This document shows positions 1 through 64,000 of a stretch of 64,000 bases of DNA, in pieces. The stretch comes from Patescibacteria group bacterium (GTDB lineage Bacteria > Patescibacteriota > Gracilibacteria > BD1-5 > UBA2023). The first letter of the stretch is position 1, and each line of letters starts with the position of its first letter. The stretch spans positions 214,040-278,039 of the forward strand of contig JBAQBR010000002.1 in assembly GCA_049293675.1 (NCBI GenBank). Reading direction: 5' to 3'. The notes under the pieces were generated by a model. The model was not told the DNA's origin. It was given only the letters and a program-made list of their open reading frames with translations, and did not search any database. Made by a program: the position numbers and the translations under genes.

Positions 1-2
1 TT

Positions 3-1964
3 GTCGGAGTTCCAAGCTGTGGAACACTTACAGGATCCAATGTAGGAAATGTAAATCCAGGTACTACAGTGAACTATACATGTTCAGCAATCAACTATAC
101 TGGTGCACTTGTAGATCTCGAATATCAGATCAATTGTGGTACGGGGACTGGTGCATGGCTATCATCCAATACGGGCTCATGTGTCGCACCGAGTACATCG
201 AGTACGACGCTTGCAGTGTCATGTGGAGTTCGTGAGAGAACCAATACTGGTGTAGTCTTCTCAGGATCTTTTGAGAATAGTTGTCGTACAACTGTAACAA
301 CAACCGGAGGTGGTGGAGGTGGACCCTCACTCATCGGAAAGACATGTATCAATGGTATTGCAACATGTGCATATTATAATTCTCTGAAAGCATGTACAGA
401 TGCTGGGGTGCCCGCAAGCCTCTGTTATTCTGCTGAGTCAGCTGGACTTAATCTCTGTCAGAATCAAGTAATGACCTGTGGATGAGGAGGTGGCGGAGGC
501 GGTGGAGGTGGCGGAGGATCTCAGTGTGGAAATGGAGTTCTCCAGCCAGGTGAGGAGTGTGATATAGCTGGTGGAGCACCTTGGTGTCAGTCATGTAAGC
601 TCATACTCAATACGAGTCCAGGAGCCAATCCTATTACAGATCTCTGGATGACTATCCCAGTACTCTCCAAAGCTTGATTCGGATATGATTGGATTGATGG
701 ACAACAAGGTAAGCTCCCATTCAGCGCCAATGGTGTAGTCATGGGTGTAGGAGGAAAGGTATTTACTCTTGCGGATACAGTTGGATTCGGAGTCAAGACA
801 CAATACGCTATCCCACTCATGCTCGAAGCAAGTAAAAAAATCTGTCTCGATGGATCAGGTGATAGTATCGACGGTACTACAATATGTACAACCTTCGGTG
901 AAGCTGCAGCTATGACTCCTGGTATTACTACTTTTGTTCGTCCAACAGATGGAAAAAGATATGTTATCATCGGTCGAGGTGACTACCAATACCAGAATAC
1001 TGTATGAGGTACTTACTACAAGAATACATCTACTAGTGCCAACAACATCGACCTCTTCAAGGGATCAAGACAGTATCAGACGTCTGCAGGCAATGCAGGA
1101 CCAACACTCAATAGTGCATTCCAAGGATCAAGAACTGGTAATGGAGAGATAGTGCTTCTCGCTTGTTCTTCTGATGGTGACTGTTCACCAACTGCTGTAG
1201 CAGACCTTGCTCGTCTTCCTGTACGTGTCTCTAGCGCTCTCGTTGGAACCACAGGAACACCAGTCAATCGTAGTATCGAACAATTCGTAAAGACAACGCC
1301 ACAGTCAATCCTCTCAGGATTCCTCGGAAATCTCAGCACAACAACGACAACGAGTACTACTACCAACTCATCATCCAATCTCGGCAATATAGCTGTCAAT
1401 GGTGCAACTGTAGGGAACGTATCTGCATCGAGACTGGATCAGATCCCAGCACTCAACGGGAATCAAAATATCCGTGCAATAAAAGGAAATCTCACTATCG
1501 AAAATTGTGTTAATAATACTTTTGTTATGACGGGTGTCCGTACAGTTATCGTCGAAGGTGATATCATCATACGATGTAATACTGTCTACGAGAATGCTCT
1601 CTCAAGTTGGGCATGGATTGCGAAGGATGGAAATATTATCATCGACAATGGAGATGGTACAGTAAACAATAAGGGAATCACCAATCTTGCAGGCGTCTAC
1701 GTAGCTATAGGTGATACACTCAATACAGGAAAATTTACTCCTATTGCTGGTATCACGACAAGTGCTATCCTCAAGATAGATTGATCTCTCTATGGTAATG
1801 CCAATCCACTTTTCAACTCTCGTCTCTATGCTCGTGGTACAAGTGCGTATGATATCCTCACAACAGGAACTATTATCACATACTCTAACCGAGCACTCGT
1901 GAACCCTCCACCTCTTCTCTCACAATACCTCAACAATTATACGGTTGAACGGGTTGTGAAGTAG
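3..1964 (+). CDS. large secreted Cys/Gly-rich surface protein (5' end outside window)
   Basis: One reading frame joins track ORFs 69..485, 741..1007 and 1152..1784 through in-frame TGA at 483, 675, 1005 and 1782, and ends at TAG 1962. It has a 13-codon Gly run and a CGNGxLxxGEECD Cys-rich repeat motif. A terminator follows. Confidence 0.7.
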
Positions 1965-1981
1965 ATAAGAGTACAATAGAA

Positions 1982-2004
1982 AAATCCCCGAAAGGGGATT
2001 TTTT
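1982..2004 (+). terminator. rho-independent terminator
   Basis: AAATCCCC-GAAA-GGGGATTT hairpin followed by a T-run, 18 nt after the stop codon. Confidence 0.8.
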
Positions 2005-2018
2005 ATGATTTCTATTGT

Positions 2019-2164
2019 ATCCGTCACCCGCGAGGCTGAAGCAATCCAGTATTCCGAGTTCCTATCATTACCGAGTGCCTTAGTCGGCGTAAGTACCCCT
2101 TGAGTATAGAATCAATGTTCTGTTTTTTCCTTCCGTACTTTTCATGATTGAAAAGTACCAAAAG
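2019..2164. repeat. structured intergenic repeat, copy A
   Basis: Module 1 is ATCCGTCACCCGCGAGGCTGAAGCAATCCAGTATT. Module 2 is TTTTCCTTCCGTACTTTT-loop-AAAAGTACCAAAAG, a 9-bp hairpin at 2135..2158. Both modules recur at 35323..35394. Confidence 0.6.
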
Positions 2165-4767: not shown

Positions 4768-5036
4768 CTCTCGAGCGACGAAGACTCACTTTTCATTGGC
4801 TCTATCGACGGCAACTTCGAGAGTGATGAGGGGAGAGGAAGACAAGAGGAAGAAGGCAAGGAGCTAAATTTGTTGCATTGTACATATTTCCTATGGAAAA
4901 TCCAGTTGTATATTTCACCTTTTTCTCTATACTCCAGAGCATGCAAATTGTGCCACTTACAACATCAGAACTCCATATCACGAGTGATACAACACTCCTT
5001 GATAGATGAGAGGTCTCTATTTCGGAGATATACGTA

Positions 5037-5692: not shown

Positions 5693-7849
5693 ATGGCTGA
5701 ACAAATCAACCAACTCAATGCTTGAGTCAGAATCTGACCAAAATTTGAATACTTCAATCTCGGTAATGTTACTATCAAGTCACTTGCTCAGAATAACATA
5801 ATTCCAAAAAAAGATTATGGAGATTATAATATAAAAAGACCCGATGGGCTCTTAGTAGACAGAACTGACAAGAAAAACCCTAAAGTTATTGCTGTTGTTG
5901 AATATAAAGATAAAAAGAGATTTCAGACTGAAAAAGACGTCAATGATGCGGTAAAACAATGTAACGACTATGCTCAAGTTCTTGGTGCTACATTTTGAGT
6001 TGCTACAGATACTAATGTATCAATCTGGATCAATCCAAAGGCTCAAAATTCTCAAAATCAATATATTGATGAAAAGTGAAATACAAGAAGCTATGAATTT
6101 ATCCGAGATGATGAACAACAGAAAATTAGTAGTAATTTTTATTTTCATCTCCAGAATGTTGATCAAGTTGATATAGAGAAGTTTTCAGATGAGGTAAAAG
6201 AGACCGATAATCTCATTACAAGAATTCTTGAATCAGATATATGAGAAAATAAGTCAGATCTCAAAAAAGATGATACGGTTGATCCAACCAATCTCGCAAA
6301 ATCTGTCTGGCAAGATATCTATGTCGCCACAGGAAAAGAGCCAACAAAGTGTCTCTATAATGTGGTGGAACTTTTTATATTCAAATTTCTGAGTGATCTA
6401 TGAGTTATGGAAAGGATGTATAGCTTTTCTTATCTTATTGAGATGATAGAAAATGGTGAAAGTGCAGAGGAAGTGCTTACTTATTATGCTGAAAGAATCC
6501 GATGAAAGATAAGGGAAAAGTTTCCATCAGAACAAGAAAGTAATACTTGACCTGATAAAACAACAATTATAAATGGAACTATCTTTGTTGAAAATAATAA
6601 ACCCGTTTTAGCAACAGCAGCACTCTTTAAAAAATCTATCGAAAAATACGAGAAGTTCTGACCACTCAGAAGTATTGATAAATCCTTTAAAATACGATTG
6701 TATGAAGAATTCTTAAAACGAGATAGTGGGGTAAAATGAATGTGACAATTTTTTACTCCTCGTAAAATAGTTTGAAATATCGTTGAGATGGCAAAAGTTG
6801 AAAACCTCAAAGATGGTGCAAGAGTATGTGATCCATTTTGCGGAGTTGGATGATTCCCGCTCGAAGTTATGACGGAACGACACAATAAGGATTTCCAAGT
6901 TACATGAGGAAAAATCAAACAAAATATTCACTATTTTGGATTCGATAAGTGAAATGATTCCGATGCAGAGAGAACAATTATACTTGCAAAAGCAAATATG
7001 TTGATCTATCTTTCCGACTTGGTGAAAAGTAATAAAAATAGTACGAGAGAATTCGCGAAAGTATTTAATGATACTTTTAAACTCAAAACAGGTACTCTTT
7101 GAACACTCGCAGATGTAGCAGAAAAAGAAGATGAAAAATATGATCTCATCATTACTAATCCTCCGTATGTAACTTCTGGAAGTAGTATACTCAAAGATGA
7201 GATAAAAAATGATTCTGAGAAACAAGACTTTTATAGAATTAATGCTATGTGAGTGGAGGGTCTTGCTATCGAGTGGATAGTGAGAAAACTAAAAAAATGA
7301 TGAAAGGCTTTTGTGGTTGTACCTGATGGGATATTCAATCGTCTCAATGATAATAAACTCAGAAAGTTCATTATGGATGAGTGTTATGTCAATGGCGTTA
7401 TTTCATTGCCAATCAATACATTCTTCACAACACCGAAGAAGACCTATATCCTTGCAATAACTAAGAAAGATAAAAAAGAAGATAAGCAGATAAAGCCAGT
7501 ATTTACCTATCTTGTCACGGATATTGGTGAGACACTTGATGTATATCGATTCGATACCTGAAAGAGCGATCTTGAGAAGGCAAAAAACCTCTTTCGAATG
7601 TTTGAATGAAATGAGAATTACTTTACTACAGACGATAAGAGATGTAAAATACAATCTTTTTCAAAATTTGAAGAAGAAGTAAATAATTATTGGACGGTGG
7701 ATAGATGGTGGACAAAAGAAGAGAGAATAGAATTAGGAGTTGAGGAATTAGAAGAAGTCTTAAATGCGCAGGAGTTTCTCGAAAAGCTCCAAGAAGTAAG
7801 AGGAAAAATAGATGAGATGGAAAAAGAACTTAAAGATTTTTTAAAGTAA
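5693..7849 (+). CDS. fused PD-(D/E)xK nuclease-like / gamma-class N6-adenine DNA methyltransferase (BcgI A-subunit-like RM protein)
   Basis: A 718-codon frame that is open only if about 20 TGA codons are sense. Motifs: GQFFTPR, DPFCGVGGF (motif I) and NPPY (motif IV). The N-terminal roughly 150 aa carry PDGLLVD...VVEYK (PD...ExK). Confidence 0.8.
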
Positions 7850-7851
7850 AT

Positions 7852-8955
7852 ATGGAACTTAAGAAAAGTATCTCCATTGGCGATAAATCTTATTTTAGTA
7901 CCTTTATTTGAAAAAGAGTATTGAGAAAGGATTTAGAAAAAATAAAGGATAGTCATAATGCGACCATTCCTCTTTATAGTGCGAATGTCCATAAACCTTT
8001 CTGATTCGTTGAGAGTTCAAATATTTCAGACTTTTCATCACCATTTATACTTTGGTGAATAGATGGTGATTTTGACTTCTCGATTCAAGAATCTGGAGGT
8101 ATCTTTGCTACTACAGACCACTGTGGTTGTATCAAGATACTAGATAGGAATATCTATCCATGATATCTCCTTTATGTCTTACGAATTGCAAAAACCATTT
8201 ATAATTTTGATAGAAGTCTCCGATCAAATCTTGAGAATATTAGTAAAATAGAAGTATCAATCCCAGTGAAAGAAAACTGAGAATTTGATCTCGGAAAACA
8301 AAAAGAAGTCGCAGAGAAATATGAAAAACTAGAGAAGATAAAGGATAGAATCCGAATTATGAAAGAGGATAATGAGAATTATCAGGTGGAAATTAAATTT
8401 GATTGAAAAGTTCAAGAAAAACTCTTGAAAAATATTTTTGATCTATCTATAAATACGAATGCCTCATTTTTCACAAAGGGCTTTGTGGATAAAAATAGAT
8501 GAAATATACCCGTTTTTTCTGCCTCAAAAAATCAGGATATAATATGATATTGATATATTAAAGATAATTTACAATGAATTAAATATTTTGAGAACTGTTT
8601 AACGTGGAATATTGATGGGTCAATAGGAAAGGCATTTTATAGAGATTGAAGGTTTTCACTTTCGGAAAAAGTTATACCACTTATACTATTTGATGACTTG
8701 AAATCGGACTTAGATATTAACTTTCTAAAATACTCAATTGAAATTGAGTCTAAAAAAGAATGATTCTGATTCTCAAAAAAGGCATGAAAATGAAGAATTA
8801 AGGATATTTTACTTAAAATACCAGTAAGGAAGAATTGAGAATTTGACCTCGAAAAACAAAAAGAAATTGCTCAGAAATATGAGAAAATCGAAAAGATGAA
8901 AAATGATCTTATCCAAGAACTTGAGTATCTCGAGTCTGTAAAAGTAGAAATATAA
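7852..8955 (+). CDS. HsdS-like specificity subunit with two target-recognition domains
   Basis: Starts 2 nt after the methylase stop. 367 codons with 16 in-frame TGA. The conserved spacer NGEFDL(G/E)KQKE(V/I)A(E/Q)KYEK occurs twice, the typical S-subunit architecture. Confidence 0.75.
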
Positions 8956-8959
8956 AACT

Positions 8960-10280: not shown

Positions 10281-10859
10281 TTATTTCACATTCATCCTCT
10301 GTATATACTTCCCAAGGATATCGAACTCGATATTGATAGGACTCGATACGCTGAGAGTTCAGATATTGGTCACATTCCATGTATGTGGGATGAGTGATAC
10401 TGTGAGATAATCATCCCCCGCAGTCACGATAGTGAGACTTACGCCGTTGAGTGCTACGCTTCACTTCTCGACGATGAGGTTGCGATACTTGGGGTCAAAA
10501 TCTATTCGAACAAGATAAGAGTCATCTTGATTATGAGTAATCTCCGTTACGGTTCCAACTGTATCCACGTGTCCTGTGACGAAGTGCCCGTCGATACGAG
10601 TCTCAGCCCTGATACATCGTTCGACGTTGAACATGTCTCAGACTTTTTTATCTCCAAAATTGGTACGAGAAAAACTCTCCTCCATCGCGAAAAACGTATA
10701 ACTCTCAGGTGTGATATCCGTCAGGGTCATACAGACTCCATCATGCGCGATACTCTGACCGATGGTGAGTGGCTCATCGTGGAAGTTGTTGGTTACTGTG
10801 AAGTTACCACCAGTTCGAGCGATGATGCGAGATGTGCGTTCGATAATTCAGGAGAACAA
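10281..10859 (-). CDS. ribE: riboflavin synthase alpha chain
   Basis: The N-terminus reads (M)FSGIIE from a TTG start, with the conserved G encoded by TGA at 10848..10850. Duplicated lumazine-binding repeats (GHVD..G; SVALNGVSLTI). 192 aa. Confidence 0.8.
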
Positions 10860-11365: not shown

Positions 11366-13552
11366 TTATATAGCTAGAGTTACAACTTCAGTTACGACAG
11401 GAGTTTCTACTATCTTTTCGAGTCCAATTCGTCCCTTTTCTCGGTCGACTGCATATACCTTTACTTTTACTATCTCACCGACCTTGGCAACATCGTTCAC
11501 ATTGGCGATGCGCTGTGGTACTCCGAACTTGGAGATATGGATCATACCTTCCTTTCACTTTGCTATCTCGACGATGGCTCCAACTGTATCGAGTATCTTT
11601 ACAATCTTTCCTTCGTAGACGTCACCAACTTCGATATCCTTGAGTATGCCCTTGATGAACTCGAGTGCTGCCTTTCCTGCTTCTTGAGTCTTGGCTGTGA
11701 TAGTACACTGACCATCGTCTTCGAGATTGACCTCGACACCATATTCTTTTTCGATACCTTGTATTGTCTCACCTCCCTTACCGATGACTTCACGCATCTT
11801 CTCTTCTGGTACGAATACTGCAAGGAGGAACGGAGCATACTGAGAGAGTTCTGCACGAGGTGCCGCGAGACACTGCTGCATCTCACCCATGATGTATCCA
11901 CATGCGTCTACTGACTTACCAAAAACTTGCTTGATCACGTCCATAGAGAGTCCTGAAATCTTACAGTCCATCTGGAGGGCAGTGATACCCTTAGTGGTTC
12001 TTGCTACCTTGAAGTCCATATCTCCGAGGAAGTCCTCCTGAGCTTGGATATCTGCGAGTATCTCGTATTTTCCTGTGTCTTCATCGTATATCATCCCCAT
12101 CGCGACACCTGCAACCATCGCCTTGATAGGTACACCTGCATCCATGAGTGACATCGTAGATCCACACACTGATGCCATAGATGACGAACCGTTACACGTC
12201 GTTGTCTCAGAGACGACACGTATCATATATGGGAAGTCTGTCTCACTTGGGAGAACTGGTTCGAGAGCCTTCTCAGCGAGACGACCATGACCAACCTCAC
12301 GACGACCGACACCACGAAGTGGCTTGACTTCACCCACTGAAAACGGAGGGAAGTTGTAGTGGTGGATATAACGCTTGGTATCCTCCTCATACATATCATC
12401 GATAAGTTGGATATCTGATGGTCCTCCGAGTGTTGTCACGGAGAGTACCTGAGTCACTCCTCGTTCAAAAAGTGCCGAACCATGAGTCCGAGAGAGTATT
12501 GGTGCAGATGCACGGACAGGGCGTACCTCGTCACATGCACGACCATCGAGACGCTTGCGAGTTTCGAGAACCGTCTTGCGCATATGTGTCTTCACAACAT
12601 CCTTCACACTATCAGCTATATCTGCCATCTTCGGTGTGTTGGTTTCTTTGTTGTATTCGAGTCTTCCCGCAATGAGTTCTACAAGATCATGGAGTGCATC
12701 GTGGAATTCGAGTTTTCCGAGTTCATAGAGTCGGCGTATTTCATTTTCAGTGACAAGAGCATGAACCTTAGTGAGGACTTCTTGGTCTATATCGACCACA
12801 GTAAGTTTTGTCTCGGGAAGTGTATGGACAGCACTATATGCAACCATGAAGTCCTGTTGAGCTCGACAGAGATCCTTGATAATTGCATGAGCATATTCAA
12901 AGGCCTTCACCATAAGTTCGTTGGATACCTCAGAACCCTGTGACTCTACCATCGTGATAGCATCGAGCGTTCCTGCAACTGTGAGGTCGAGGTGTGCTGC
13001 GGCAATCTGTTCAAAAGTTGGATCGAATATAAAGTTCCCAGCTTCATCTGAGGCTATACGTACTGCTGCAACTGGTCACTCGAACTCTGTTACTCCTGCG
13101 AGCATGACCGAGAGTGATGCACCAGTAACTCCATACCAACCGAAGTCAGAGAGTCCAGATGATGACATGATAGTCGAGATAATCTGTGTATCTGTGCGAG
13201 TTCCCTTAGGGAACATAGGTCGTATTGGTCGGTCGATCATACGAGAATTCAGTATTGACGCCTCAGATGGACGGCCTTCACGCTTCATGAATCGATTTCC
13301 CCCGATCTTTCCGTTCGCATAGTACTTTTCTTGGAATTCGACCGTGAGAGGGAAGAAGTCTCCATCCTTCGGATTACCGATACCAGTGGTTGTGAGGAGG
13401 AAGTTCCCAGACTCATCGCGGATAACGATAGAACCAGTTGCGAAGAGCGCAAGACGCCCAGATTCGAAAGTGATATTTTTGTTGCCTATGGTATAGGTCT
13501 TGGTAACAACAGCGCGATCCAGAGCATTACGGTCCTTGAGTCAGACAATCAT
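11366..13552 (-). CDS. pnp: polyribonucleotide nucleotidyltransferase (PNPase)
   Basis: Track ORFs 11555..12952 and 13076..13288 plus extensions form one 728-codon frame. It contains RNase PH repeats, a KH domain and a C-terminal S1 domain that resumes after TGA 11555. Confidence 0.95.
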
Positions 13553-13964: not shown

Positions 13965-14041
13965 GCGAGCATAGCTCAATTGGCTAGAGTACCGCCTTGC
14001 CATGGCGGCTGTTGTGGGTTCGAGTCCCATTGCTCGCTCCA
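13965..14041 (+). tRNA. tRNA-Gly (GCC)
   Basis: Acceptor GCGAGCA/TGCTCGC, anticodon stem CCGCC/GGCGG, loop TTGCCAT, discriminator U73, encoded CCA. Confidence 0.9.
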
Positions 14042-15385: not shown

Positions 15386-15446
15386 CGAAATGAATTTTGT
15401 TATATTTTACTTTATGCCTATTATAAAATTAATTAACCTTAATTTT

Positions 15447-15917
15447 ATGAACAAGACAATAGTATGAGTGGTTACACTATGAATATGAACCCTAGTAATG
15501 AATGCTTTTCAAGATGACTCATCTGTTGTGCAGGTACCTACCGTACCTAATCAAGTGATATCCGAATCAAATACTCCAAGTGCCCAGCCAAAAAAAGCTG
15601 TAGAACAACCAAAAGAGGAGGCTCCGTCCAAAGAGGCTGATGTAATAGTTCCTAAAAAAGTAGAAGTACAAAAAGCTGTAGAACAACCAAAAGAAACTAT
15701 AAAAATTCAAGAAGTTATCCCAGAACCAAAGAAGGTTGAAGTTAGGGCAACCTCAAATTGTGACCCCAATTATTCATGATGTGTCCCTATTGCAAGTGAT
15801 GTAGATTGCGCTGGATGAAAATGAAATTGACCAGCCTATGTTCGTTGACCTGTGCAAGTGATCTGAAGCGATATATATGACCTAGATAGAGACAATGATT
15901 GATGGGGTTGCGAGTAA
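15447..15917 (+). CDS. secreted/membrane-anchored Excalibur calcium-binding domain protein
   Basis: N-terminal hydrophobic segment, a Pro/Lys/Glu-rich linker, and the C-terminal CDPNYSGCVPIASDVDCAGGKGNGPAYV..DLDRDNDGWGCE. About 10 TGA codons fall mostly at the Gly positions of this motif. Confidence 0.8.
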
Positions 15918-31638: not shown

Positions 31639-31676
31639 TATATAAAAGTATTGAGTATTAAGTATAGAGGTATGAA

Positions 31677-40220: not shown

Positions 40221-41321
40221 TTATGAGAAAAAGTCTTCGAGCCATCACTTCTTGGTCTTACCTCACTCAGATTGGAGAATTGCCTCATAGAGTTTTTTCT
40301 GGTCACTTGAGAGCTTTTTCGGTATTGCGACTTCGATGTGGAGTATGAGACTTCACTTGCCACTGCGACCGTCGAGACGCGGAAGTCCCTCATTGTGGAA
40401 TGTTATCTCTGTGCCATGTTGCGTGCCTGATGCGATATCGAGAGGTTTTTTTCCGATGATTGGTATCTCGACCATCTTGGATACTCCGAGGACTGCCTCT
40501 GCAGGGGAGACCTCCACGGTGTAGTGGAGATGCATACCCTCACGCGTGAGTCCACCTTCACGACTTGGTACATCGAATGTGATATAGAGGTCTCCGTTGC
40601 CATCACCACCACGATGACCCTCTTCACGTATCTTGATACTCATGCCACTCTCGATACCAGCAGGCACGTCGATAGTTTTTTCTATCTTTTCCTTGAGCTT
40701 GCCACTTCCATGACAGTGCTTACACTTCTCTATGATCTTCTTACCTGTACCATGACATGTGCTACATGGGCGCTGTTGTTCCATGACACCGAATATCGTC
40801 TGCATCCGCTCGCGTACCTGGCCACTGCCATGACACGTTGCACATGTCTCGGTAGTTCCACCAGCACCGTTGCAGTGATGACAGTGAACTTCGCGGGTGA
40901 ATTCAACTTTACGAGAGCTGCCACGGATAGCATCTTCGAGTGATACCTTCATCGCTATCTCGATGTCTCATCCGATATCCGCACGTCGTCTCTTGCTACC
41001 ACCACCTCAGGCGAATCCACCACCGAAAAACTGGGAGAATATATCTCCAAGGTCTCCAGCATCGAATCCCCCCTGAAAACCTCCACCACCAAAACCGCCC
41101 ATGCCTTCAGCAGAGCCGAATCTGTCATAGTTGGATTTTTTCTCGCTATCTCAGAGGACGGAGTATGCTTCGTTAAGTTTTTTGAATTCTGCTTCTTTAC
41201 CCTTGTCGCCACCGTGTCTGTCGGGGTGGAGTTCCATGGCGCGTTTTTTGTAGGCTTTTTTGATCTCATCTGCACTTGCAGTTTCACTGACTCAGAGGAT
41301 ATTGTAGTATTCTTTTGACAT
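40221..41321 (-). CDS. dnaJ: molecular chaperone DnaJ
   Basis: J domain (YYNILGV, HPD), G/F region, and four CxxCxGxG zinc-finger repeats. Track ORF 40353..40952 is extended at both ends through TGA. 366 aa. Confidence 0.9.
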
Positions 41322-41410
41322 AGTTAAAATAGAAAAAGACATAGGCATAGTACATAGAGCGGAAAAGAAAGCCCTTTCTATGACCTATGTCTATGCCTAG
41401 GCGTTAAGTA

Positions 41411-43451: not shown

Positions 43452-45443
43452 TTATAATACTTTCTTTCACTTCATCCACTCTTCGATATCTTGCCGTATC
43501 TCTGCTATGAGATCTGTATCTCTGAGGTCTGCGAAGTGGAAGTCTGGAACACCAGATTGGCGTACTCCGTAGACTTCACCAGGTCATCTGAGATCCAAGT
43601 CTATCTGCGCAAGCTCGAATCCATCATTGGTCTTCTCCATAGCCTTGAGACGATCACTTTTGTACTCCTTGGTCGTGAATAGGTAGCAGTATGACTGATG
43701 ATTGCCACGACCGACACGTCCACGGAACTGGTGGAGCTGAGAGAGTCCGAACCGCTCAGAAGCTTCGATACAGATAACGGTAGCATTGGGATTGTTGACT
43801 CATACCTCGACTACAGAGGTTGAGGAGAGTATATGTATCTTGTTCTCATAGAACTCTTGCATGATACGGTCTTTTTCTTTTCCTGTCATCTTGCCATGGA
43901 TGAGTCCGATAGTGAGGTGAGGAAATATACCTGAAAGTATCTCTTGCATATTGGTGGCTGAGGCGATATCAAGCGTCTCTGACTCCTCAACCAGTGGAGA
44001 TATCCAGTAGACCTGACGCCCACTCTTAACCTCTTCATCTATCCAATTGTATATTGCTCCGCGCTGTTCCTCCTTGACCACTCGTGTATGTATCGGGAGT
44101 CTTCCTGCTGGGTACTCATCAAGGACGGAGATATCTTGATCGCCATAGAGTGTGAGTGCGAGTGAGCGGGGAATCGGTGTTGCTGACATATTGAGGCGGT
44201 GTGGCTTGATAGATCAGGCACTACAATACTCTTCCAGTGCCTTGCGTTGCTCGACTCAGAATCGGTGTTGCTCATCCACCACAACAAAACCGAGCCCAGC
44301 GAATTGGACTGAATCCTGTATCAGTGCATGTGTCCCGAATATGATATCTGTCTCGCCGGACTTGAGTCTCGCTCGGGCATCTTCCTTCATCCGCGGTGTG
44401 ATAGAACCAACGAGGAGATCAGACTGGATTCACCACTGCATGAGCCAAGCCTCCTGTCCTGTGAAGTGCTGACGCGCAAGTATCTCGGTTGGTGCCATGA
44501 TGGCAACTTGGAGACGGATGTCTTTTTTCCTCCTTACCAATATTGCATGCACACTCGCGAGCATCGCGACAACAGTCTTACCAGTTCCGACGTCTCCCTG
44601 CAACATACGTGCCATCGCGTGTAGCCGTTCCATGTCTTTGAGTATCTGGAAGAGGACAATCTTTTGCTTATTCGTGAGAGGAAAAGGAAGCGACTCAATC
44701 AGTGACTTCATGAGTTCTGTATCGAGTGCTATCTGCGGTGCGAGTCCTGTTGATTCTGCTTCGAGGGCGTATTTTTTCTCTATACCTCGCTTCTGGAAGT
44801 GATAGAGTTCCTCGTATCCGAGTTCTGCTCGAGCTCTGTTCCAGTCTTCGAGGCTCGCTGGAAAGTGGATTGCCATGATATTCTCAACTCGACTGCGCAT
44901 TCACTTCTTCGTGCGTATGTCAGCAGGGATGCTGCTTTTTACCTCTGCGATGACATGACGGATGAGGGATATCTTCTCGCGTATCCATGTGCCAGGGATA
45001 TAGTTGAGATCAGAGTACACAGGTACGATCTCCCGACGTGTTGCCTTCGGATGCTCTATCTCTGCATTCGGAAAAGAGAGACGACCGTATTCGTATTTGG
45101 GTTGGCTGTATATGAGCACCGTATCACCTGATGCGAATTGTTGCAACAGGTATTTTCTATTGAACCAGACAGCTTCTGCGTATGAACCATCAGCATCGAC
45201 GAGGACTGCTTTGATAAGGAGTTTCTTGTTCCGAGTCATCTCACTTGTGAGGAGCTCTATCTTACATTGGACAACCTGCTTCTCTGTGATAGTGAGAGTC
45301 GAAAATCTCGTTGCAACATCACTCTTGTCTTCGACATCACGCGGAAAATACTCGATGAGCTGTTCGGCAGTCTCGATTCATGCTTCACGGAGTTTTTTTA
45401 TATAGACGTCCGTGGTATGGAGGAGTGACTTAGTGAGGAACAA
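43452..45443 (-). CDS. recG: ATP-dependent DNA helicase RecG
   Basis: Track ORFs 44901..45239, 44430..44900 and 43800..44189 share one frame. Wedge/OB N-terminus, GDVGTGKT, DEQHRFG and QLHQFRGRVGRG. Probable TTG start at 45443. Confidence 0.9.
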
Positions 45444-46634: not shown

Positions 46635-48065
46635 ATGGCTGATATGCAAACACTCGTCACCTTTGCGAAGACAAAGGGTTTCGTCTATCCAGGATCAGAT
46701 ATCTATGGTGGACTTGCAAACTCATGGGACTATGGACCACTTGGTTCTGTGATGAAAGAAAATATCAAAAATCTCTGGATCAAAAACTTCGTCCAGAAGC
46801 GAAGAGACATGACTCTCCTCGATGCAGCTATCCTCATGAATCCTCAAGTTTGGGTTGCATCAGGACATGTTGGAGGATTCTCTGACCCACTTATTGATGA
46901 TAAAAAAACTGGAGAACGATTCCGCGCAGATAAGCTCCTCGAAGATCTCATCGAAAATATGGGTACAGATGCAGAATCACTGAAAGCAAAATATAATCTA
47001 GTAAACCTCGTTCCAGAATCTTGGTCTCTCGAAAGGCAAACTGCAGTAATGCGTGGTGAAAGTGTCAAGAATCCAAATACTGGAGAAGCAGGTGATTGGA
47101 CTGATGCAAAAAAATTCAACCTCATGTTCCGTACATTTCAGGGTGTAACAGAGGATTCAAGTGCTACTATCTACATGCGTCCTGAGACTGCACAGGGAAT
47201 ATTTGTGAACTTTGCCAATATTGCTCGAAGTTCTCGCAAGAAGGTTCCATTCGGTGTAGCTCAAGTTGGTAAAGCATTCCGCAATGAGATTACTCCAGGG
47301 AATTTTATCTTCCGAACTCGTGAATTCGAACAGATGGAGATAGAGTATTTTGTAGAGCCTGAGGCAGTTGCTCCAGGAAAACATCTTGAGATGCATGCTC
47401 AATGGAAAGCAGAGTGTAAGAGATTCCTTATCCAAGATATCGGCATCAAGGAAGAATCACTCCGTCTCCGTGACCACGAAAAAGAAGAACTCTCACATTA
47501 CTCAGCAGCGACGACAGATATCGAGTTCAAGTTTCCATTCGGTTGGGGAGAGCTCTGGGGAATTGCTGATCGTACGGATTTTGACCTCAAGGCTCACATG
47601 GCAGAGTCAAAACAAGATCTCTCGTACTTTGATCCATACACCAATACAAAATATATCCCATACGTTATCGAACCGTCTGTTGGACTTACTCGACTCTTTC
47701 TCGCAACTCTTGCGAATGCCTACGATGAGGTAATAACTGAGGAGGGAAGTCGTGTGGTCATGAGATTCACTCCTGCAGTTGCACCAATCAAGGTTGGTAT
47801 CTATCCACTCGTGAAGAAGTTCGCAGCTCAAGCAGAGGAACTCTTTGCACGACTATCTCCTGAGTTCATGTGTGACTACGATGAGTCAGGAACTATTGGT
47901 AAGCGCTATGCTCGTGCAGATGAGACAGGTATACCATACTCAATCTGTGTCGAGCCTGAGAACTATGAACAAGGACAGGTCACAGTACGCGATAGAGATA
48001 GCGGAGAACAAGAAGTGGTGAAGCTCGGTGATCTCGTAACTTGGCTCAAAAATAAAGGTTGCTAA
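46635..48065 (+). CDS. glyQS: glycine--tRNA ligase (alpha2 type)
   Basis: Uninterrupted 476-aa ORF with class II aaRS motifs and a GlyRS N-terminus (GFVYPGSDIYGGLANSWDYGPLG). No TGA. Confidence 0.95.
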   Translation: MADMQTLVTFAKTKGFVYPGSDIYGGLANSWDYGPLGSVMKENIKNLWIKNFVQKRRDMTLLDAAILMNPQVWVASGHVGGFSDPLIDDKKTGERFRADKLLEDLIENMGTDAESLKAKYNLVNLVPESWSLERQTAVMRGESVKNPNTGEAGDWTDAKKFNLMFRTFQGVTEDSSATIYMRPETAQGIFVNFANIARSSRKKVPFGVAQVGKAFRNEITPGNFIFRTREFEQMEIEYFVEPEAVAPGKHLEMHAQWKAECKRFLIQDIGIKEESLRLRDHEKEELSHYSAATTDIEFKFPFGWGELWGIADRTDFDLKAHMAESKQDLSYFDPYTNTKYIPYVIEPSVGLTRLFLATLANAYDEVITEEGSRVVMRFTPAVAPIKVGIYPLVKKFAAQAEELFARLSPEFMCDYDESGTIGKRYARADETGIPYSICVEPENYEQGQVTVRDRDSGEQEVVKLGDLVTWLKNKGC

Positions 48066-49478: not shown

Positions 49479-50354
49479 ATGGAACTCTGGATAATATATG
49501 CAATTATTGCATCAGTATCGATTGGCATTAATTGATTTCTCACAAAAGTAATTTCAGATAGAAATATCGATGGAGCAATGTTAACTTTTATGCAAGGACT
49601 TGTTTATTTCTTAGTAGGACTAGGACAGAGCCTGATTTTTTGATTGAAGTTATTTTCGTCGGAGGATTTGTTTATTATTGGTTTATCAATCTTAATTGCC
49701 ATAATAATTTTTCTCAATCTAAGATTTCGTATTAAGGCATTAAAATACCTTTCAACTTCAGAATACTTTATATGATATCGTATATTTACCACAATTACAC
49801 TTTTGATTGTTGGTATTATTTTTCTTTCAGAAACTATTACTGGTTATCAAATATTCTGACTCATTTTATGAAGTTTTGCAATCATATTTCTATTTGAAGA
49901 GGATAAAAAGCTCAGGACTTCACGTAATTGGAATAGGGCAATGCTGTATCTTCTCTTAAGCATCACTGCTGGCTGATCAATACAGATAATTGCCAAAGTA
50001 CAATGAATTGATGATTTCCCATACTCGAGTATGTTATTTTATCAAGGTATGGTGATGTTATCGATATCTGCAATATTTGATAGAAAGATTGTAATGGAGA
50101 ATGTTGTGTCTCTCGGTAAGAATAGAAAAACTTTATTGATAACCCTTATTGCGTGTTTGTTTGTATATGTTGCAGCGTCATTTAATATCCTTGCGTACAA
50201 GTTCTGATGAAGTGTGAGTATAGTCACAAAGATTATGGCATATTCACTATTTGTATCTATAGGACTCTCTATCTTACTCTGAAGGGAAAGAATGAGTTAT
50301 AAAAAATGAATTGCCTTCATCCTCACTATCGTCAGTATCTATTATCTTAACTAA
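49479..50354 (+). CDS. multi-pass membrane protein (EamA/DMT-like)
   Basis: 291 codons with about 10 hydrophobic segments and TGA as sense. It starts 3 nt after the DedA stop codon. Confidence 0.5.
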
Positions 50355-50355: not shown

Positions 50356-50601
50356 ATGCAACTCTCAGAACTCAGACAACACATCACATCTGTAGACTCC
50401 GAACTCCTTCGTCTCCTCGATGAGCGCATGCAACTTGCGGAGTGAGTCGCAGCATACAAGAGGGAACATGGACTTCCAGTATTTGATGCTGTTCGTGAGG
50501 CAGAGATCCTCGCAAAAATCCCTGAAGGTTACAGGGATATATGGAAGGAGATTATGGGTGCATCCAAGAAGGTACAAGAAGATTATCTTAAAGAAGTTTA
50601 A
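50356..50601 (+). CDS. AroQ-class chorismate mutase (81 aa)
   Basis: LRQHITSVDSELLRLLDERMQLAEGVAAYK...DAVREAEIL matches the CM_2 pattern. One TGA. Confidence 0.65.
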
Positions 50602-52676
50602 TTTGCCTGTTTTATCGAGAGTTGTATCTTTCCTGTTTCCTTATCTATGCTCGTGACTTTGACACGGACTTTTTGTCCGACTTCGAGGACTTCCTTGGGG
50701 TCGCGGATATAGCGGTCGACGATCTCTGAGATATGGACGAGTCCGTCGTTCTTGAGGCCAACATCGACAAAAGCTCCGAATGCAACCACATTGCGCACAA
50801 CACCATCGAGGATATCTCCAACTCAGACTGTTTCGAGTGTGAGTTTTCGCGTGCTAACCATAGCCGTACTCTCGGTACGTGGGTCACGTCCGAGGGATTC
50901 GTATGACTTCCATATGAATTCAACTACTCATGCGCTCACATCTGGATAGAGGGTTTTGAGTTTTGACTCATGTTGCGAGTATTCGTTAGAAGTTATCTTC
51001 TCGCTTATCAGTGTATGTGCGAGTTCGTATTGGTCTGGGTGGATATCAGTATTATCGAGTAGTTCTGGACTCTCTGGTACACGGAGGAATCCTATGGCTT
51101 GTTCGTATGACTTCTCACCGAGTACTTTTTTGATACTTTTTCGTGAATGATAGGGTCTATTCTCTGAGAGTTTCTGTGCTGACTTTTTATTCAACCCTGA
51201 GATATACGTGAGGACAAAAGCAGAAGCACTATTCACATTGACTCCTACAGCATTCACAACATCTTCGATGACATATCCGAGTTTTTCGGATAATATCTTT
51301 TCGCTGACATCATGCTGATACATCCCGACTCAGATACTCTGTGGTGGGATCTTCACGAGTTCAGAGAGAGGGTCAATATACCGACGACCGATAGAGATAG
51401 TTCCACGGTCGGTGACATCGAGAGCCGGGAATTCACTACTTGCAACGTCCGACGCTGAGTAGACTGACGCTCACGCCTCGCTCACAACATAGGTTGGTAT
51501 GCTCGCAAGACATGAAGTGAGGAGCTCTATAGTCTCCCCTGATCCTGTACCATTACCGACGACGATGACTTCGACTGCGTGCTTCTCGGCTATCTTCACG
51601 AGCTTGTCTCTCGCTTCACGTTCGGTATCGAGATATATCTTATCGAACGCGACAGGATTCCCGAGAGTATCGAGTATTGCGAGCTTACATCCTGTTCGGA
51701 ATCCTGGATCGATAGCGAGTATCTTTTTTCCATATTCAGGCTTGGTCATGAGGAGACTCCTGAGATTCTGAGAAAATGTTGCTACAGCATCGAGTTCACC
51801 GAGTTCTGTGAGATTTCCACGGATTTCGTTTTCTACTGATTCATACAGTGTCTTGTATCCGAGGGTGATGGCACGGAGGTATGTCTCAATTGGCTTGGTA
51901 CGGATAATCTCACGGACGAATTCTTCGAATACTTCTTCATCTACATCGAGAGATACAGAGAGGATTCCGAGACTCTCTCCACGACCCAGGGCGAGTATCT
52001 GGTAGGGTTTGAGGATCGATACTTTGCGAGAGAACTCTGCATATGTGTCGAATTTGTAGATTTGTTTTTTTGCATTTGGTTCGAGTTTTTCGAGCATCTT
52101 TTCAGATTTTTTCTTGGAATTGACGACCCCAGTTTTCTCGATAGATACCGTGATAAGGTGACGTAAGTCTGTATCTATGACTATCTCTGCAGCGATGATC
52201 TCAACGACACCGTCGAGTATCTCTTCTTCACTGTAGTTCTTTAGGAGCTCTTCGGGGATCTGTATGGCATTATTTTTCCTCAGGTATTCAGCTACGACTC
52301 CGAATCCCTTCTCAAGTGCGATCATGGCCTTGGTCTTGCGCTTGAGTCTGTAGGGCTTGTATATCTCCTCGACAGCCTTCAGTGTCTCGCAAGCGATGAT
52401 ACTTGCCTCGAGTTCTGGAGTCAGTTTCCCTTGTTCAGATATTCCGTTAATTGCGGTGACTTTTGCCTTGTAGAGTGACTCTATCTTGCCTTGGAGTTCG
52501 ATGATGTCGCGGATTTCTTTTTCGTCGAGATTACCGGTTGCTTCCTTGCGATATCGCGCGATAAAAGGTACAGTTGATCCCTCGGCTGTGAGTGAAAGTA
52601 CAGCTTCTGTTTGGAATTTTTTGAGTTCAAGTGTGGAGGATATCTCATCTATATAGTTGGGTTCGAGGAGGGGCAT
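50598..52676 (-). CDS. tex: Tex-like transcription accessory protein (S1 domain)
   Basis: Track ORFs 51471..52736, 50928..51323 and 50598..50798 share one frame. Tex N-terminus (FIARYRKE), YqgF-like and HhH regions, and a C-terminal S1 domain. I chose ATG 52676 as the start. Confidence 0.85.
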
Positions 52677-52795: not shown

Positions 52796-53407
52796 ATGAA
52801 AACACTTATTTTTGTACATGGTTGAATGTCTTTTGCTACAAGGGAAGAGTATCTTGATTGGTTAAAAAAAGACTACGTGAACTGGATTGCGGATGAATGG
52901 AAACCCTCTGAGAAAAAATGGAAGCCGACTATTGCGGAGAGATTCGTCTCTCTATGAGGAAGGGTCTTTATGCCTCAGATGCCATCCGATCTCAATGCAA
53001 AATACAATGAGTGGCTCATAACTTTCAATGGACTTCTCTCTACACTTGAAGTTGATAGCGAGATTATTTTCGTCTGACACTCCCTTGGTGGATGTTTTCT
53101 TCTCAAGTATTTTTCTGAAGTAGAAAAGTTTGATTATAAAATCAACCAGATTCATCTCCTCGCAGCATGTATATCTGAGTGAGATTTTACCCCGCCTAAT
53201 AATTACGAATATTTGCAAAAGCTCGAAAATCGAGTCCATATATGGCATGCAGAAGATGATGCAATTGTGCCATTTTCAGTTGGAGAGCAACTCGCACAGA
53301 CTCTTCCTGCAGCGCAGACACATTTTTTCTCCAGTGAAAAATGATATGGACACTTCCATAGAGCTGAGAGTATTCCAGAAGTTGAAGAAGTGATATTTTG
53401 AAAGTAG
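52796..53407 (+). CDS. alpha/beta serine hydrolase (YdeN/RBBP9-like)
   Basis: Nucleophile elbow GHSLGG, with the first G encoded by TGA. The N-terminus reads IFVHGG. 203 aa. Confidence 0.6.
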
Positions 53408-53409
53408 TA

Positions 53410-53437: not shown

Positions 53438-53461
53438 TAAAATATACTAAATAAATTAATT

Positions 53462-55377: not shown

Positions 55378-56157
55378 ATGAGTGATATTGTTCACATCCG
55401 TGCCAAGAAGTCACTCGGACAGAACTTCCTTATCGATGAGGAGGCTCTTTCTGATATTGCTCATTCCGTCACAGTTGAAGGGAAGAATATTATCGAAGTA
55501 GGTCCTGGATATGGCGCACTGACAGACTATCTCATAGGACAACACCCAGAGACTCTGACACTCGTGGAACTCGATACTGACATGATACGGATTCTCGAGA
55601 AAAAATATCCTAAAGATATCAATATCCTCCATCAGGATGTACTCCAATTTACTCCTGTATTTAGAGAGTATTCTGTTATTGCGAATATTCCATATTATAT
55701 CACTTCGCCCATTCTCTTCCACTTCCTATATGCTTCTGATTTTACTCCACCTGAGTCTATGGTCATCATGATGCAGGAGGAGGTCTGAGAAAAGATCCTC
55801 GAATGACGTCATCCAAAGAAACCACATCACTCGCTTCTCTCACTCGCTATGGAGGAAGCCTGTGACGATATAGATATTGTTCGTTATGTGCCTCGTACAT
55901 CTTTTGATCCTGCACCCAAGGTAGACTCGATTGTGGTACGCTTCGTTGTGAAGAAAACTCGAGATAGAGAACAGGAGAAAACCCTAATATCTCTCTGGAA
56001 GGTTGCCTTCGCGCATCCACGCAAGACTCTCCTCTCCAACATGAAGGGGAGTACTTATGACTCGGATGCAATCCGAAGTATCATCCTCGAACTCGGATAT
56101 GACGAACGAGTACGTGCTGAGGCTATCAGACGGGAGGACTGGAAGAGATTTTTATAG
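55378..56157 (+). CDS. rsmA: 16S rRNA (adenine1518/1519-N6)-dimethyltransferase
   Basis: Motifs LGQNFL, EVGPGYGALT and NIPYYITSPI. Track ORFs 55378..55788 and 55849..56157 join via TGA. Confidence 0.9.
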
Positions 56158-57165
56158 TCTTCTCATGTATTCCTCACCCTTCATCGTGATCTGACGTCCG
56201 CGAGGTGTACGTTCTATGAAACCTATCTGGAGTAGGTATGGTTCGACGACATCCTCGATTGTTGCAACTTCTTCACCAACGACAGATGCAAGAGTCGAGA
56301 GTCCAACGGGTCGTCCGTGGAATCCCTCCATGAGGTGCATCATGAGCTTGCGGTCGAGGATATCGAGTCCGTATGCGTCAACTCCGAATCCTGTGAATAT
56401 AGCTTCACATTCATCTTTACTCTCGATGGATTTCCCAACTGTTGCATAGTCACGGAGTACTTTCACGTATCTATTGGCAATACGAGGCGTTCCGCGAGAG
56501 CGCTCTGCAACTGAGAATATTGCCTCATCTGAGAGACTCTCGAGTCAGAGAAGTGCAAAAGATCGCTTGATTATCTTCGCGAGGTCAGCTGTCTCATAGA
56601 AGTCGAGCTTCATCACATTGCCGAATCTATCTCTGAGAGGATTCGAGAGGTTGGATAGTCGAGTTGTTGCGCCAATCAGAGTGAACGGTGGTATATCCAT
56701 CTTCACACTTGTCGCACCTGTACCAGAACCAATCATGATGTCTATCTGGAAATCCTCCATCGCAGAGTAGAGTATCTCCTCTATCTGAGGACGGAGACGG
56801 TGTATCTCATCGATAAAAAGTATCTCTCACTCTGTAAGACTTGTGAGGATTGAGATGATATCTGACTGCTTCTCGATGGCAGGTCCACTGGTACTCTTGA
56901 TAGCTGAGCCCATCTCATGCGCGATAATAGTTGAGATAGTGGTCTTTCCGAGACCTGGTGGTCAGTAGAAGAGTATATGCTCAAGTGGTTTGTTGCGTAT
57001 CTTCGCACTCTGTATCGCAACACTGAGATGCTCTTTCATCTGTGCTTGTCCGACGTATTCATCGAGTTTACGTGGTCTCAGTGATATCTCAGAGATGATC
57101 TCGTCTTCTTGTTGGACAGGGGATACGGTTCGCGTGATGTCTGGTTTGGATGATTTGATAGCCAT
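56152..57165 (-). CDS. ruvB: Holliday junction branch-migration helicase RuvB
   Basis: Three track ORFs share one frame. Walker A is (G)PPGLGKTT, with the first G encoded by TGA at 56962..56964. Also FIDEIHRL and a winged-helix C-terminus. Confidence 0.95.
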
Positions 57166-62369: not shown

Positions 62370-62381
62370 GTATTAAAAAAT

Positions 62382-62408
62382 AAAATCCCTCCGAAATGGA
62401 GGGATTTT
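62382..62408. terminator. bidirectional rho-independent terminator
   Basis: AAATCCCTCC-GAAAT-GGAGGGATTT hairpin between tig (+) and the HTH gene (-). Confidence 0.8.
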
Positions 62409-62916
62409 AAATTATCTTTTTTCTTGCTCTATCTGTTGGTTCGATAAGCTCTAGGAATTTCTGTAAGTCAGCCCTCTTAATCGCACGAGGACCGTTATTA
62501 CTCTTTCGTATAAAGAGTAAGGGATTATCCTTAATCATCGCTGTCCATATTGGTTGAGAGAGCCTGCCGTTACTTAGTGTCATTAATTCTCTAAAAAACA
62601 AAATATCTCATGAAGTATCTATTACATCAATCGAAGTATCATGTTTATGTTTTTTGGGAATATCTTTAACTCATTCAAGTATACGTATAGCTCAGGTCTG
62701 AGTGATAGTAAAAACTAATCAAACTCAAGTCCTTTCTTTTGTTACTCATTGAATTGGTTTTATCTTTTTGAGTAGTTCAGTTACTTTGCCCTGAGGTATC
62801 GAGAGAAGCTCAGCAATCTCTCTACTTGTGATTTTCGGTTTTTGTAATTTTTGAACTACAGACTCTCAGCTATTTGGAGTTGTGTCTTTACGAAATATTT
62901 CAAATGCGCTAGACAT
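62407..62916 (-). CDS. DNA-binding protein with two HTH-like regions (excisionase/MerR-like C-terminus)
   Basis: Track ORF 62407..62601 extends upstream through 6 TGA codons to ATG 62916. I checked the frame codon by codon. Contains ITSREIAELLSIPQGKVTELL. Confidence 0.45.
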
Positions 62917-62968
62917 AAAAGCATAATGTTAATGAAATACATATAACATTATTAATTATTTTGTCAAA

Positions 62969-64000
62969 TTAATTTTTCTTATACCAATATCGACACTCTT
63001 CGGCTCCATTGAGGACTTTTTTATTTGCGAGTTGATTTTTTCCGATGTCATAACTCGTGATGAATCCACCAGCCCCTCACTCGATTTCTTTTTTGAGCTT
63101 TTCGTATATCTCTCTGAGGTCAGCTCACTGGAGACGATTACCGTATGGAGGATTTGAGACGATAGTAGATTCACTAGTTTGACCATCAAGATAATCACCA
63201 ACTTCGAATCTGATATCATCTTGTACTCCTGCGCGCATGGCGTTACCAAGAGCAATACGTATCATCTCAGGATCTCGGTCACGTCAGATGATAGTGTATT
63301 TACCACTTGGATATGACTTTCACTTTGCTTCAGTTTTTACAGTATCTAGGAGTCCTCTGTCATGTGATACGAGTGACTCGATACGGAAGTGACGCATGAG
63401 TCCTGGTGCGATATTGCGGGCTATCATGGCGGCCTCGATGGGGATTGTACCACTTCAGCAGAACGGATCAAGGAGGGGACTTGCGTATTTCCAGTTCGCC
63501 CATGCCACCATAGCAGCTCAGAGATTTTCCTTGATTGGAGCTTCACCTGCTTCGATACGATATCCTCGCTTGTGGAGTGGGTCACCCGTGACATCGAGGA
63601 GTATATGTGTGATATCGTCGATGATGAGGATGAGTATATGTACTTCAACACCACTCGTGGTATTCGGAGTATTCATCGTCCCATAGATTGCCTTCTGTGC
63701 GATAGACTGTATCGTCGGTATACTCGTGAGGACAGAGCGCGTCGAAGATGCTTCGATGACGATACGTTCACGACCAGTGAGATGTTCGTTCCAGTCTATA
63801 TCACTACAGAGGTCAAAGAGTCTATCGAAGTCAACGACCCTTGCTTCGCCGAGCGAGAGGTATACTCGATTGGCAAATCGACTCCATACGAGGAGTTCGT
63901 AGAGATTCTTGTCACTTCCGCTACACTTCACGAGACGGTCTTGTGCACGGATATCTGAGAGTCTGAGCTTCTCACATTCACGCTTGACGAGGGATTCGAG
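62969..64000 (-). CDS. THUMP-domain RNA methyltransferase (RlmL/YpsC-like, UPF0020), N-terminus outside window
   Basis: Track ORF 63518..63931 continues through TGA to TAA 62969. Motifs LWSRFANRVY, DPFCGSGT (one G encoded by TGA) and NPPYG. I checked the frame codon by codon. Confidence 0.8.

Follow-up and report, generated by a model that had tools for sequence, protein, structure and literature searches.

Evidence that UGA is a glycine codon (genetic code 25) in a 64-kb chromosomal segment of Gracilibacteria

The DNA analysed here is a stretch of 64 kb (hereafter the window) with a GC content of 41.7%. Its gene set was obtained with a self-trained gene call, which gave 61 genes that together occupy 80% of the window; one further gene, encoding an EamA-family transporter, was skipped by this codon-model call and recovered by Pfam. 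In-frame TGA codons are present in 50 of the 61 genes, with 229 TGA among 17,021 codons. The features on which the analysis is based are the following:

5693..7849, forward strand: N6-adenine DNA methyltransferase of a type I-like restriction-modification module; 21 TGA, GC 33%; motif TGA in GVG[TGA]F (6851-6853, motif I) and M[TGA]QFFTPR (6743-6745)
7852..8955, forward strand: type I specificity subunit (HsdS-like); 16 TGA, GC 29%
10281..10859, reverse strand: riboflavin synthase (RibE/RibC); four TGA, one of them at codon 4 (10848-10850)
11366..13552, reverse strand: polynucleotide phosphorylase; three TGA
13965..14041, forward strand: tRNA-Gly(GCC), detected with ARAGORN and Rfam; the sole glycine tRNA in the window
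15390..15917, forward strand: small secreted protein with a weak Excalibur-like C-terminal DxDxD[G]xxCE; ten TGA
30694..31689, reverse strand: COG0523 GTPase (YjiA-like); five TGA, including the P-loop GFL[G]SGKT (31603-31605)
32130..32900, forward strand: type IV pilin-like protein carrying a Laminin_G_3 domain; 12 TGA, one of them in AII[TGA]VL (32190-32192)
37251..38291, reverse strand: recA; TGA at 38121-38123, 37827-37829 (EIE[TGA]), 37698-37700, 37422-37424 and 37383-37385
38482..39108, reverse strand: lexA; four TGA, 4/4 opposite Gly in E. coli LexA
40221..41348, reverse strand: dnaJ; seven TGA, one of which (41292-41294) is in the J-domain (YYNIL[G]V)
43452..45443, reverse strand: recG; eight TGA, 5/7 of the aligned ones opposite Gly in E. 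coli RecG
46635..48065, forward strand: glycyl-tRNA synthetase (GlyRS, alpha2 type); no TGA
49479..50354, forward strand: EamA-family transporter; eleven TGA, low GC
50598..52676, reverse strand: Tex/YhgF-like RNA-binding protein; four TGA, 3/4 opposite Gly in E. coli YhgF
52796..53407, forward strand: serine hydrolase (Pfam Ser_hydrolase); six TGA in the full-length frame from 52796
56152..57165, reverse strand: ruvB; TGA at 56962-56964 (FY[TGA]PPGLGKTT), 56827-56829 and 56545-56547

When TGA is read as a sense codon, the window contains 45 stop-to-stop open reading frames of at least 300 amino acids, against 5 under the standard code. As a control, freeing TAG gave 7 such frames and freeing TAA gave 6; the gain observed with TGA is well above chance. 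The called genes end in TAA (44) or TAG (17) and never in TGA, in agreement with the preliminary description of this DNA, according to which all genes stop at TAA or TAG once their pieces are merged. That description also held that more than half of the recognisable genes are cut by TGA, which proved an understatement: among genes recognisable by Pfam or by an E. coli orthologue, 34 of 39 carry it. The eight TGA coordinates that it had placed in named motifs all correspond to an in-frame TGA within those motifs.

The mere presence of TGA within genes would also be expected if these codons were true stops, found in pseudogenes, introduced by sequencing or assembly errors, or bypassed through selenocysteine insertion or programmed read-through, and nothing beyond this presence speaks for such an origin. 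Against it, a single frame is kept in each of the 50 genes across the 229 sites, with no TAA or TAG inside; the identical sequence was obtained in independent assemblies, the window being also contained in the 1.12-Mb contig JBAQDH010000001.1 (GCA_049286235.1); and related genomes keep the sites as TGA or GGN. Selenocysteine would be expected at few sites in specific genes, not at 229 sites in 50 genes, and none of the 54 TGA sites aligned with E. coli orthologues lies opposite Cys. True stops of any of these kinds are therefore vanishingly improbable.

The amino acid encoded by TGA was examined using 17 orthologues from E. coli K-12, which provided 54 aligned TGA sites and 372 aligned GGN sites. 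Gly is the residue facing TGA at 34 of the 54 sites (63%) and GGN at 255 of the 372 (69%; Fisher p=0.44), the background of Gly being 8.3% (binomial p=1e-23 for the enrichment opposite TGA). Tabulating the residue opposite each TGA, as the preliminary description had proposed, thus reveals an enrichment in Gly at the same rate as for GGN. A ranking of the possible meanings of TGA by log-likelihood places Gly first, 59 nats ahead of the runner-up amino acid. About one third of the TGA sites face a non-Gly residue in E. coli, as GGN codons do; the earlier statement that TGA falls on invariant glycines consequently does not hold for every TGA, the remainder being at variable positions. In other homologues from standard-code organisms, the fraction of Gly is 0.56 in TGA columns and between 0.57 and 0.64 in GGA, GGC and GGT columns; it is 0.38 for GGG, with 12 columns only.

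At the level of individual proteins, the five TGA of recA are all opposite Gly in E. coli K-12 RecA and in the solved structure of RecA (PDB 5jrj). Structures of homologues likewise have Gly at the TGA sites of the RuvB Walker A motif, the DnaJ J-domain and the YjiA P-loop, and Trp or Cys at no TGA site. The TGA at 56962-56964 in ruvB encodes the first G of the Walker A motif GPPGLGKT. Of the three sites of this gene, the first and third face G both in four RuvB chains from the PDB and in E. coli K-12, while the second faces H or G in the former and H in the latter. In dnaJ, TGA is opposite G at amino acids 19, 332 and 362, and elsewhere opposite T or S, and A, D or R, which are variable sites. 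For the COG0523 GTPase, amino acids 29 and 265 align with G both in the YjiA structure 1nij and in K-12 yjiA, the other TGA being at variable sites. The three aligned TGA of riboflavin synthase are opposite Gly in E. coli RibC, and its N-terminus LFS[TGA]II matches MFTGIV of RibC. For polynucleotide phosphorylase, E. coli Pnp and a homologue from Doudnabacteria have Gly at both aligned TGA. In the serine hydrolase, four of the TGA are located downstream of 52970, including the one at 53075-53077 (V[TGA]HSLGG), which supplies the initial G of the nucleophile elbow G-H-S-L-G.

An identical lengthening of reading frames would be expected if UGA encoded tryptophan (genetic code 4), the commoner reassignment of UGA in bacteria. 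Code 4 occurs in Mycoplasmatales, Entomoplasmatales and some insect endosymbionts, and loss of release factor 2 (RF2) is a proposed route to it; UGA is a sense codon there and here, with Trp as the amino acid there and Gly here. In the E. coli alignments, TGA is opposite Trp at none of the 54 sites whereas TGG is at 8 of 26 (p=5e-5). With TGA counted as Trp, the Trp content would rise to 2.2% instead of 0.9%. Pfam profiles were scored with Gly, Trp or X written at TGA, and Gly outscores Trp in five families, every score tested dropping with Trp: N6_Mtase in the methyltransferase (109.8 bits with Gly, against 94.1 for X and 88.2 for Trp), Methylase_S in the HsdS-like subunit (61.2 with Gly vs 45.2 with Trp), N_methyl (41.9 vs 34.6) and Laminin_G_3 (52.8 vs 31.6) in the pilin-like protein, and EamA in the transporter (39.0 vs 32.8). 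Finally, TGA is never aligned with TGG in related genomes, in either direction and including low-GC metagenome contigs. Together these observations leave UGA as tryptophan extremely improbable. The small secreted protein had been described as carrying an Excalibur CAGGKGNGP motif with TGA: a match is found if TGA is Gly and none with Trp or X, but it stays below the Pfam cut-off (17.6 bits, E=0.005) and covers only the last 11 of the 36 profile positions.

The best matches of the GlyRS in the GTDB species set are all metagenome-assembled genomes (MAGs) of Candidatus Gracilibacteria (80%, 66% and 56% identity), the nearest one, at 80%, being of human oral origin. The gene order is partly common to the window and to its closest Gracilibacteria relative. 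The placement initially proposed, in the Gracilibacteria/Absconditabacteria (SR1) type, is thus borne out and narrowed to Gracilibacteria. Among 12 window TGA sites compared in related genomes, 7 are GGN and one is TGA; reciprocally, TGA codons of relatives are opposite GGN of the window at 38 of 48 sites. In recG, the closest relative has GGA or GGT at four of the TGA sites and TGA at one. Alignments of the methyltransferase, the specificity subunit and a coupling protein with two low-GC metagenome contigs where TGA is also sense retain 47 aligned TGA pairs, and the TGA that changed are mostly opposite GGN.

UGA could in principle have a dual meaning: glycine for the most part, yet still termination in certain genes or contexts, owing to a remnant of RF2 activity or to a context-dependent signal. 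Three genes that end in TGA, one codon and then TAA or TAG speak for it. However, three cases at one distance are near chance (about 0.8 expected per position), and TGA is distributed along genes like GGN (KS p=0.22). Two TGA of dnaJ are close to the C-terminus and homology runs on past both; in addition, stopping at the TGA of catalytic glycines in recA and ruvB would destroy the protein. We therefore regard this dual meaning as very unlikely, and UGA as a glycine codon throughout remains our reading.

Concerning other codons, Absconditabacteria (SR1) combine UGA as Gly with a predicted reassignment of CGA and CGG to Trp (Shulgina and Eddy 2021, PMC8629427). UGA as Gly is common to both, whereas CGA and CGG encode Arg in the window. 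CGA is common (7.8 per 1000 codons) and is opposite R in E. coli at 23 of 46 sites; CGG is opposite R at 4 of 11, and neither is opposite W. Sites with CGG in the window are CGN or AAA in relatives. No further reassignment was detected when all 64 codons were checked, AGG and TTG having too few aligned sites to judge.

TGA represents 18% of the glycine codons of the window, and some core genes lack it. Its share among glycine codons decreases with the GC content of the gene (Spearman -0.50, p=1e-4), from 49% in 16 low-GC genes to 12% in 45 core genes (GC at least 41%), which fits a synonymous codon under AT pressure. The closed BD1-5 genome has a GC content of 28.9% (PMC6851277), and the higher GC of the window explains that UGA is only a minor glycine codon here. 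A restriction-modification pair that carries 37 TGA belongs to the low-GC set. Low-GC genes are flanked by core genes whose order the closest relative conserves, and the 21 kb of this relative that was compared contains no counterpart of them. The methyltransferase displays 68% identity to genes on the two low-GC metagenome contigs, and its nearest known relatives lie on contigs of 27-34% GC where TGA is also sense. It is conceivable, though we lean slightly against it, that the low-GC genes were transferred from lower-GC code-25 organisms; code 25 might then delimit a closed pool of gene exchange, since such genes cannot be expressed in hosts using the standard code. As for integration of the restriction-modification genes as an island, the sign looked for, a repeat of the tRNA-Cys end, was absent, and the only repeat is an internal one typical of specificity subunits.

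Taken together, the rate of Gly opposite TGA, the exchange with GGN and the Pfam scores uphold the initial claim that UGA is a sense codon for glycine, and the window is almost certainly chromosomal DNA of a member of Gracilibacteria (BD1-5/GN02, Candidate Phyla Radiation) whose genetic code is code 25, with UGA as an ordinary glycine codon and UAA and UAG as sole stops. By analogy with published work on this lineage, UGA would be read by a dedicated tRNA-Gly with the anticodon UCA, charged by GlyRS, while RF2, which stops at UGA, would have been lost, leaving UAA and UAG to RF1. The GlyRS encoded in the window would be the enzyme needed to charge this tRNA with glycine; in relatives with 24-25% GC its gene contains 16-19 TGA, mostly at Gly columns. 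The tRNA-Gly(GCC) of the window decodes GGC and GGU and not UGA. No tRNA with the anticodon UCA was found in about 81 kb (the window with 8-9 kb of flanking DNA at either end, roughly 7% of the 1.12-Mb contig), nor in a scan of all the related code-25 loci at hand, a sample too small to carry weight. The glycine identity elements expected in tRNA(UCA) are G1:C72, C2:G71, G3:C70 and U73 (PMC8629427), and prfB was undetected in every BD1-5 genome (PMC6851277). We also searched GlyRS for a change of the anticodon-binding domain specific to code 25; the two strong changes of the clade, W49I and G61L, are both N-terminal, occur as well in one standard-code Chloroflexi sequence and are inseparable from shared ancestry, so that this candidate was discarded.

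UGA as Gly is established in Gracilibacteria and Absconditabacteria (PMC8629427): code 25 was attributed to Gracilibacteria by Rinke et al. (2013, as cited in PMC8629427), glycine at UGA was validated by proteomics in another BD1-5 bacterium (Hanke et al. 2014, PMC4032931), and BD1-5 genomes have been studied by Sieber et al. (2019, PMC6851277). The window resembles the published Gracilibacteria (BD1-5/GN02) in the use of UGA as Gly, in TAA and TAG as sole stops and in the small genome of the Candidate Phyla Radiation type (1.12-Mb contig). The code was already described for this lineage in 2013 and the present case, one more Gracilibacteria genome, is nothing new in kind. The assembly, contig and run accessions of this DNA gave no hit in the papers searched. 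Its consequence is for annotation: genes cut by the standard code yield fragments with a median of 35 residues. As had been predicted for any standard-code annotation of this locus, one public gene-call set consists of short pieces ending in TGA, where RuvB is reduced to 104 residues and the methyltransferase to 82, which is the pattern that standard-code calling would produce; a second public set contains full-length genes. For this contig, four of five genes come out wrong in any gene call, protein database entry or functional prediction that relies on the standard code.

In the window TGA functions as a glycine codon, both in core and in accessory genes, and the sole stop codons are TAA and TAG. 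At a GC content of 41.7%, the window contains five stop-to-stop open reading frames of at least 300 residues under the standard code versus 45 with TGA as sense; for comparison, seven are obtained with TAG as sense and six with TAA. The preliminary description had proposed this reading and located TGA codons at eight positions in named motifs, and inspection of sequence and context found a TGA at each, in the frame and motif claimed. A gene caller using a codon-usage model trained on the window itself called 61 genes, which together occupy 80% of its length. As had been asserted, these close only with TAA (44 genes) or TAG (17 genes), and 50 contain in-frame TGA (229 TGA per 17,021 codons). 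The standard-code reading breaks them into 290 pieces with a median of 35 residues. Because the caller overlooks some low-GC genes with Pfam support (e.g. the EamA transporter, 49479-50354), the true gene total is nearer 70. Pfam or an E. coli orthologue identifies 39 genes, and TGA occurs in 34 of them, where the earlier estimate was more than half; the other five encode L11, one DedA-family protein, thioredoxin, GlyRS and trigger factor.

Proteins in which TGA was written as X were aligned to solved structures. All five X of RecA are opposite Gly. RuvB has X opposite Gly in Walker A and at residue 207, and opposite His or Gly at residue 113. The J-domain X of DnaJ is opposite Gly and its variable sites are opposite other residues; in the window homologue of YjiA, the P-loop X and the X at residue 265 are opposite Gly. 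The reading was calibrated on 17 orthologue pairs aligned from 16 E. coli K-12 regions. TGA is opposite Gly at 34 of 54 sites (63%), a rate not significantly different from that of the GGN codons (60-72% for GGA, GGT, GGC and GGG; pooled 255/372; Fisher p=0.44) and enriched over the 8.3% background of Gly (p=1e-23). Trp or Cys is opposite TGA at none of the 54 sites; TGG is opposite Trp at 8 of 26. A likelihood ranking of all amino acids for TGA places Gly first, 59 nats above the next. A further set of homologues, taken from standard-code members of other phyla, agrees with the E. coli result, with 0.56 Gly in the TGA columns. The remaining 61 sense codons have their standard meaning in the E. 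coli K-12 alignments (CGG is Arg), AGG (9 sites) and TTG (10 sites) being too rare for judgement. Codon bias over all window genes is odd for a 42% GC genome: CTC represents 941 of 1479 Leu codons (64%), its meaning unchanged by alignment check, and ATC and TTC are preferred, yet TAT, AAT, GAT and CAT are favoured over their C-ending partners.

Pfam scores were higher with TGA as Gly than as Trp in every family tested.

Pfam scores with TGA read as Gly versus Trp
N6_Mtase: 109.8 (Gly), 88.2 (Trp)
Methylase_S: 61.2 (Gly), 45.2 (Trp)
Laminin_G_3: 52.8 (Gly), 31.6 (Trp)
N_methyl: 41.9 (Gly), 34.6 (Trp)
EamA: 39.0 (Gly), 32.8 (Trp)

The alignments and these scores refute code 4 (UGA as Trp). Frames are kept, the sites are numerous and no TGA is opposite Cys, which refutes pseudogenes, sequencing errors and selenocysteine. 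A dual meaning of UGA, Gly plus occasional stop, is highly improbable: the distribution of TGA along genes resembles that of GGN (KS p=0.22), and TGA lies at the catalytic Gly of recA and ruvB, so frequent termination at UGA is implausible. Three genes (41826-42437, 53774-54268 and 52796-53407) end in TGA, one codon, then TAA or TAG; these ends could date from a time when TGA was a stop and had another stop behind it, but their count is near chance expectation.

As a glycine codon, UGA would be decoded by a tRNA-Gly(UCA), and RF2 would have been lost, both reported earlier for the lineage (PMC8629427, PMC6851277); in another BD1-5 bacterium UGA as Gly has been proven by proteomics (PMC4032931). 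Within about 81 kb of the 1,118,814-bp contig that holds the window sequence, tRNA-Cys(GCA), tRNA-Arg(CCU), tRNA-Gly(GCC) and tRNA-Glu(CUC) are present, and no tRNA(UCA) was found.

Nearest among the genomes of the GTDB species set is L001, a Candidatus Gracilibacteria MAG of human-oral origin (GlyRS identity 80%), followed by other Gracilibacteria MAGs (56-66%). L001 and the window have in common the order thioredoxin, O-methyltransferase, RecG, GlyRS and DedA protein. At 12 window TGA sites the relatives have GGN at seven and TGA at one; their own TGA is opposite window GGN at 38 of 48 sites, and TGG pairs with TGG, never with TGA. The TGA share of GlyRS Gly codons peaks in the lowest-GC relatives (16/32 and 19/32 at 24-25% GC; 2/35 at 52% GC), with none in L001 (36% GC) or the window (42% GC).

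Two Gracilibacteria relatives at 24-25% GC have their sole GlyRS CGG (codon 303 in L003, codon 287 in L012) opposite a window TGG, at a position occupied by E, Y, W or F in standard-code homologues. Some Gracilibacteria have been suggested to read CGG as Trp (PMC8629427); this site, one codon in each, hints at the same. L004 (CAZUBA010000030.1) and L021 (CALMFT010000020.1), labelled 'Candidatus Peribacteria' and 'uncultured bacterium', need TGA as sense, with GlyRS TGA mostly on Gly columns, and appear to be code-25 organisms filed under different labels. GlyRS position 49 (window gene 46635-48065) is Ile in 7/7 sequences from TGA-sense loci and position 61 is Leu in 6/7. Among 74 sequences first taken as standard-code, Trp49 is found in 88% and Gly61 in 96%, and all ten Peregrinibacteria have both; one Chloroflexi sequence (L033) has both changes. 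These may be tied to charging tRNA(UCA) or reflect shared ancestry only.

Low-GC genes (26-40% GC) are dispersed among core genes of 44-49% GC.

Low-GC regions of the window
5693-9154
14083-14592
15390-15917
17473-18563
20809-21285
36546-37190
39281-39634
42400-43351
45527-45964
49479-50354
52796-53749
57403-58323
62407-62916

TGA accounts for 100 of 205 Gly codons in the 16 called genes below 41% GC and for 129 of 1070 in the other 45. Low-GC genes lying between L001-syntenic core genes have no counterpart within the 21 kb of L001 compared. Three low-GC genes adjoin tRNA genes. The methyltransferase and specificity-subunit pair (5693-8955) contains 37 TGA and lacks a neighbouring restriction subunit; a search near the adjacent tRNA-Cys (9199-9276) found no integration repeat. 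Two metagenome contigs (27% and 34% GC), which likewise need TGA as sense, encode proteins with 68% identity to the methyltransferase (L099 5001-8262 and L100 223-3480 correspond to the pair); over all alignments of the window to these contigs, 47 TGA pairs are conserved.

The window also encodes a TrwB/TraG-domain protein (2452-4845) resembling a type IV secretion coupling protein. Loci of Peregrinibacteria, Peribacteria and one MAG labelled Nitrospirota (L017, L018, L019, L022, L032) have homologues no farther than about 10 kb from GlyRS, and another (L099 8774-10861) adjoins the methyltransferase pair. Metal-handling genes for a ZIP transporter (29857-30645), a COG0523 GTPase (30694-31689) and a Fur-family regulator (33609-33980) are clustered, 8 kb from a cation-diffusion exporter (21323-22219).

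The trigger factor gene of the window and a standard-code fragment close to its left end match GCA_049286235.1, contig JBAQDH010000001.1 (1,118,814 bp; window at about 261236-325235, reverse strand); the same sequence is present in the Logan assemblies of SRR28011844 and SRR28011855. On the NCBI contig the gene calls are fragments ending in TGA (RuvB 104 aa, methyltransferase 82 aa); Logan calls for the same DNA, including the SRR28011844 contig spanning the right flank, are full length (RuvB 337 aa, Tex 692 aa). Unlike the Absconditabacteria variant, the window reads CGA and CGG as Arg. As an example of code 25 it is ordinary, from a lineage already known to use it and a genome already in GenBank, and the value of the finding is that of an annotation flag.
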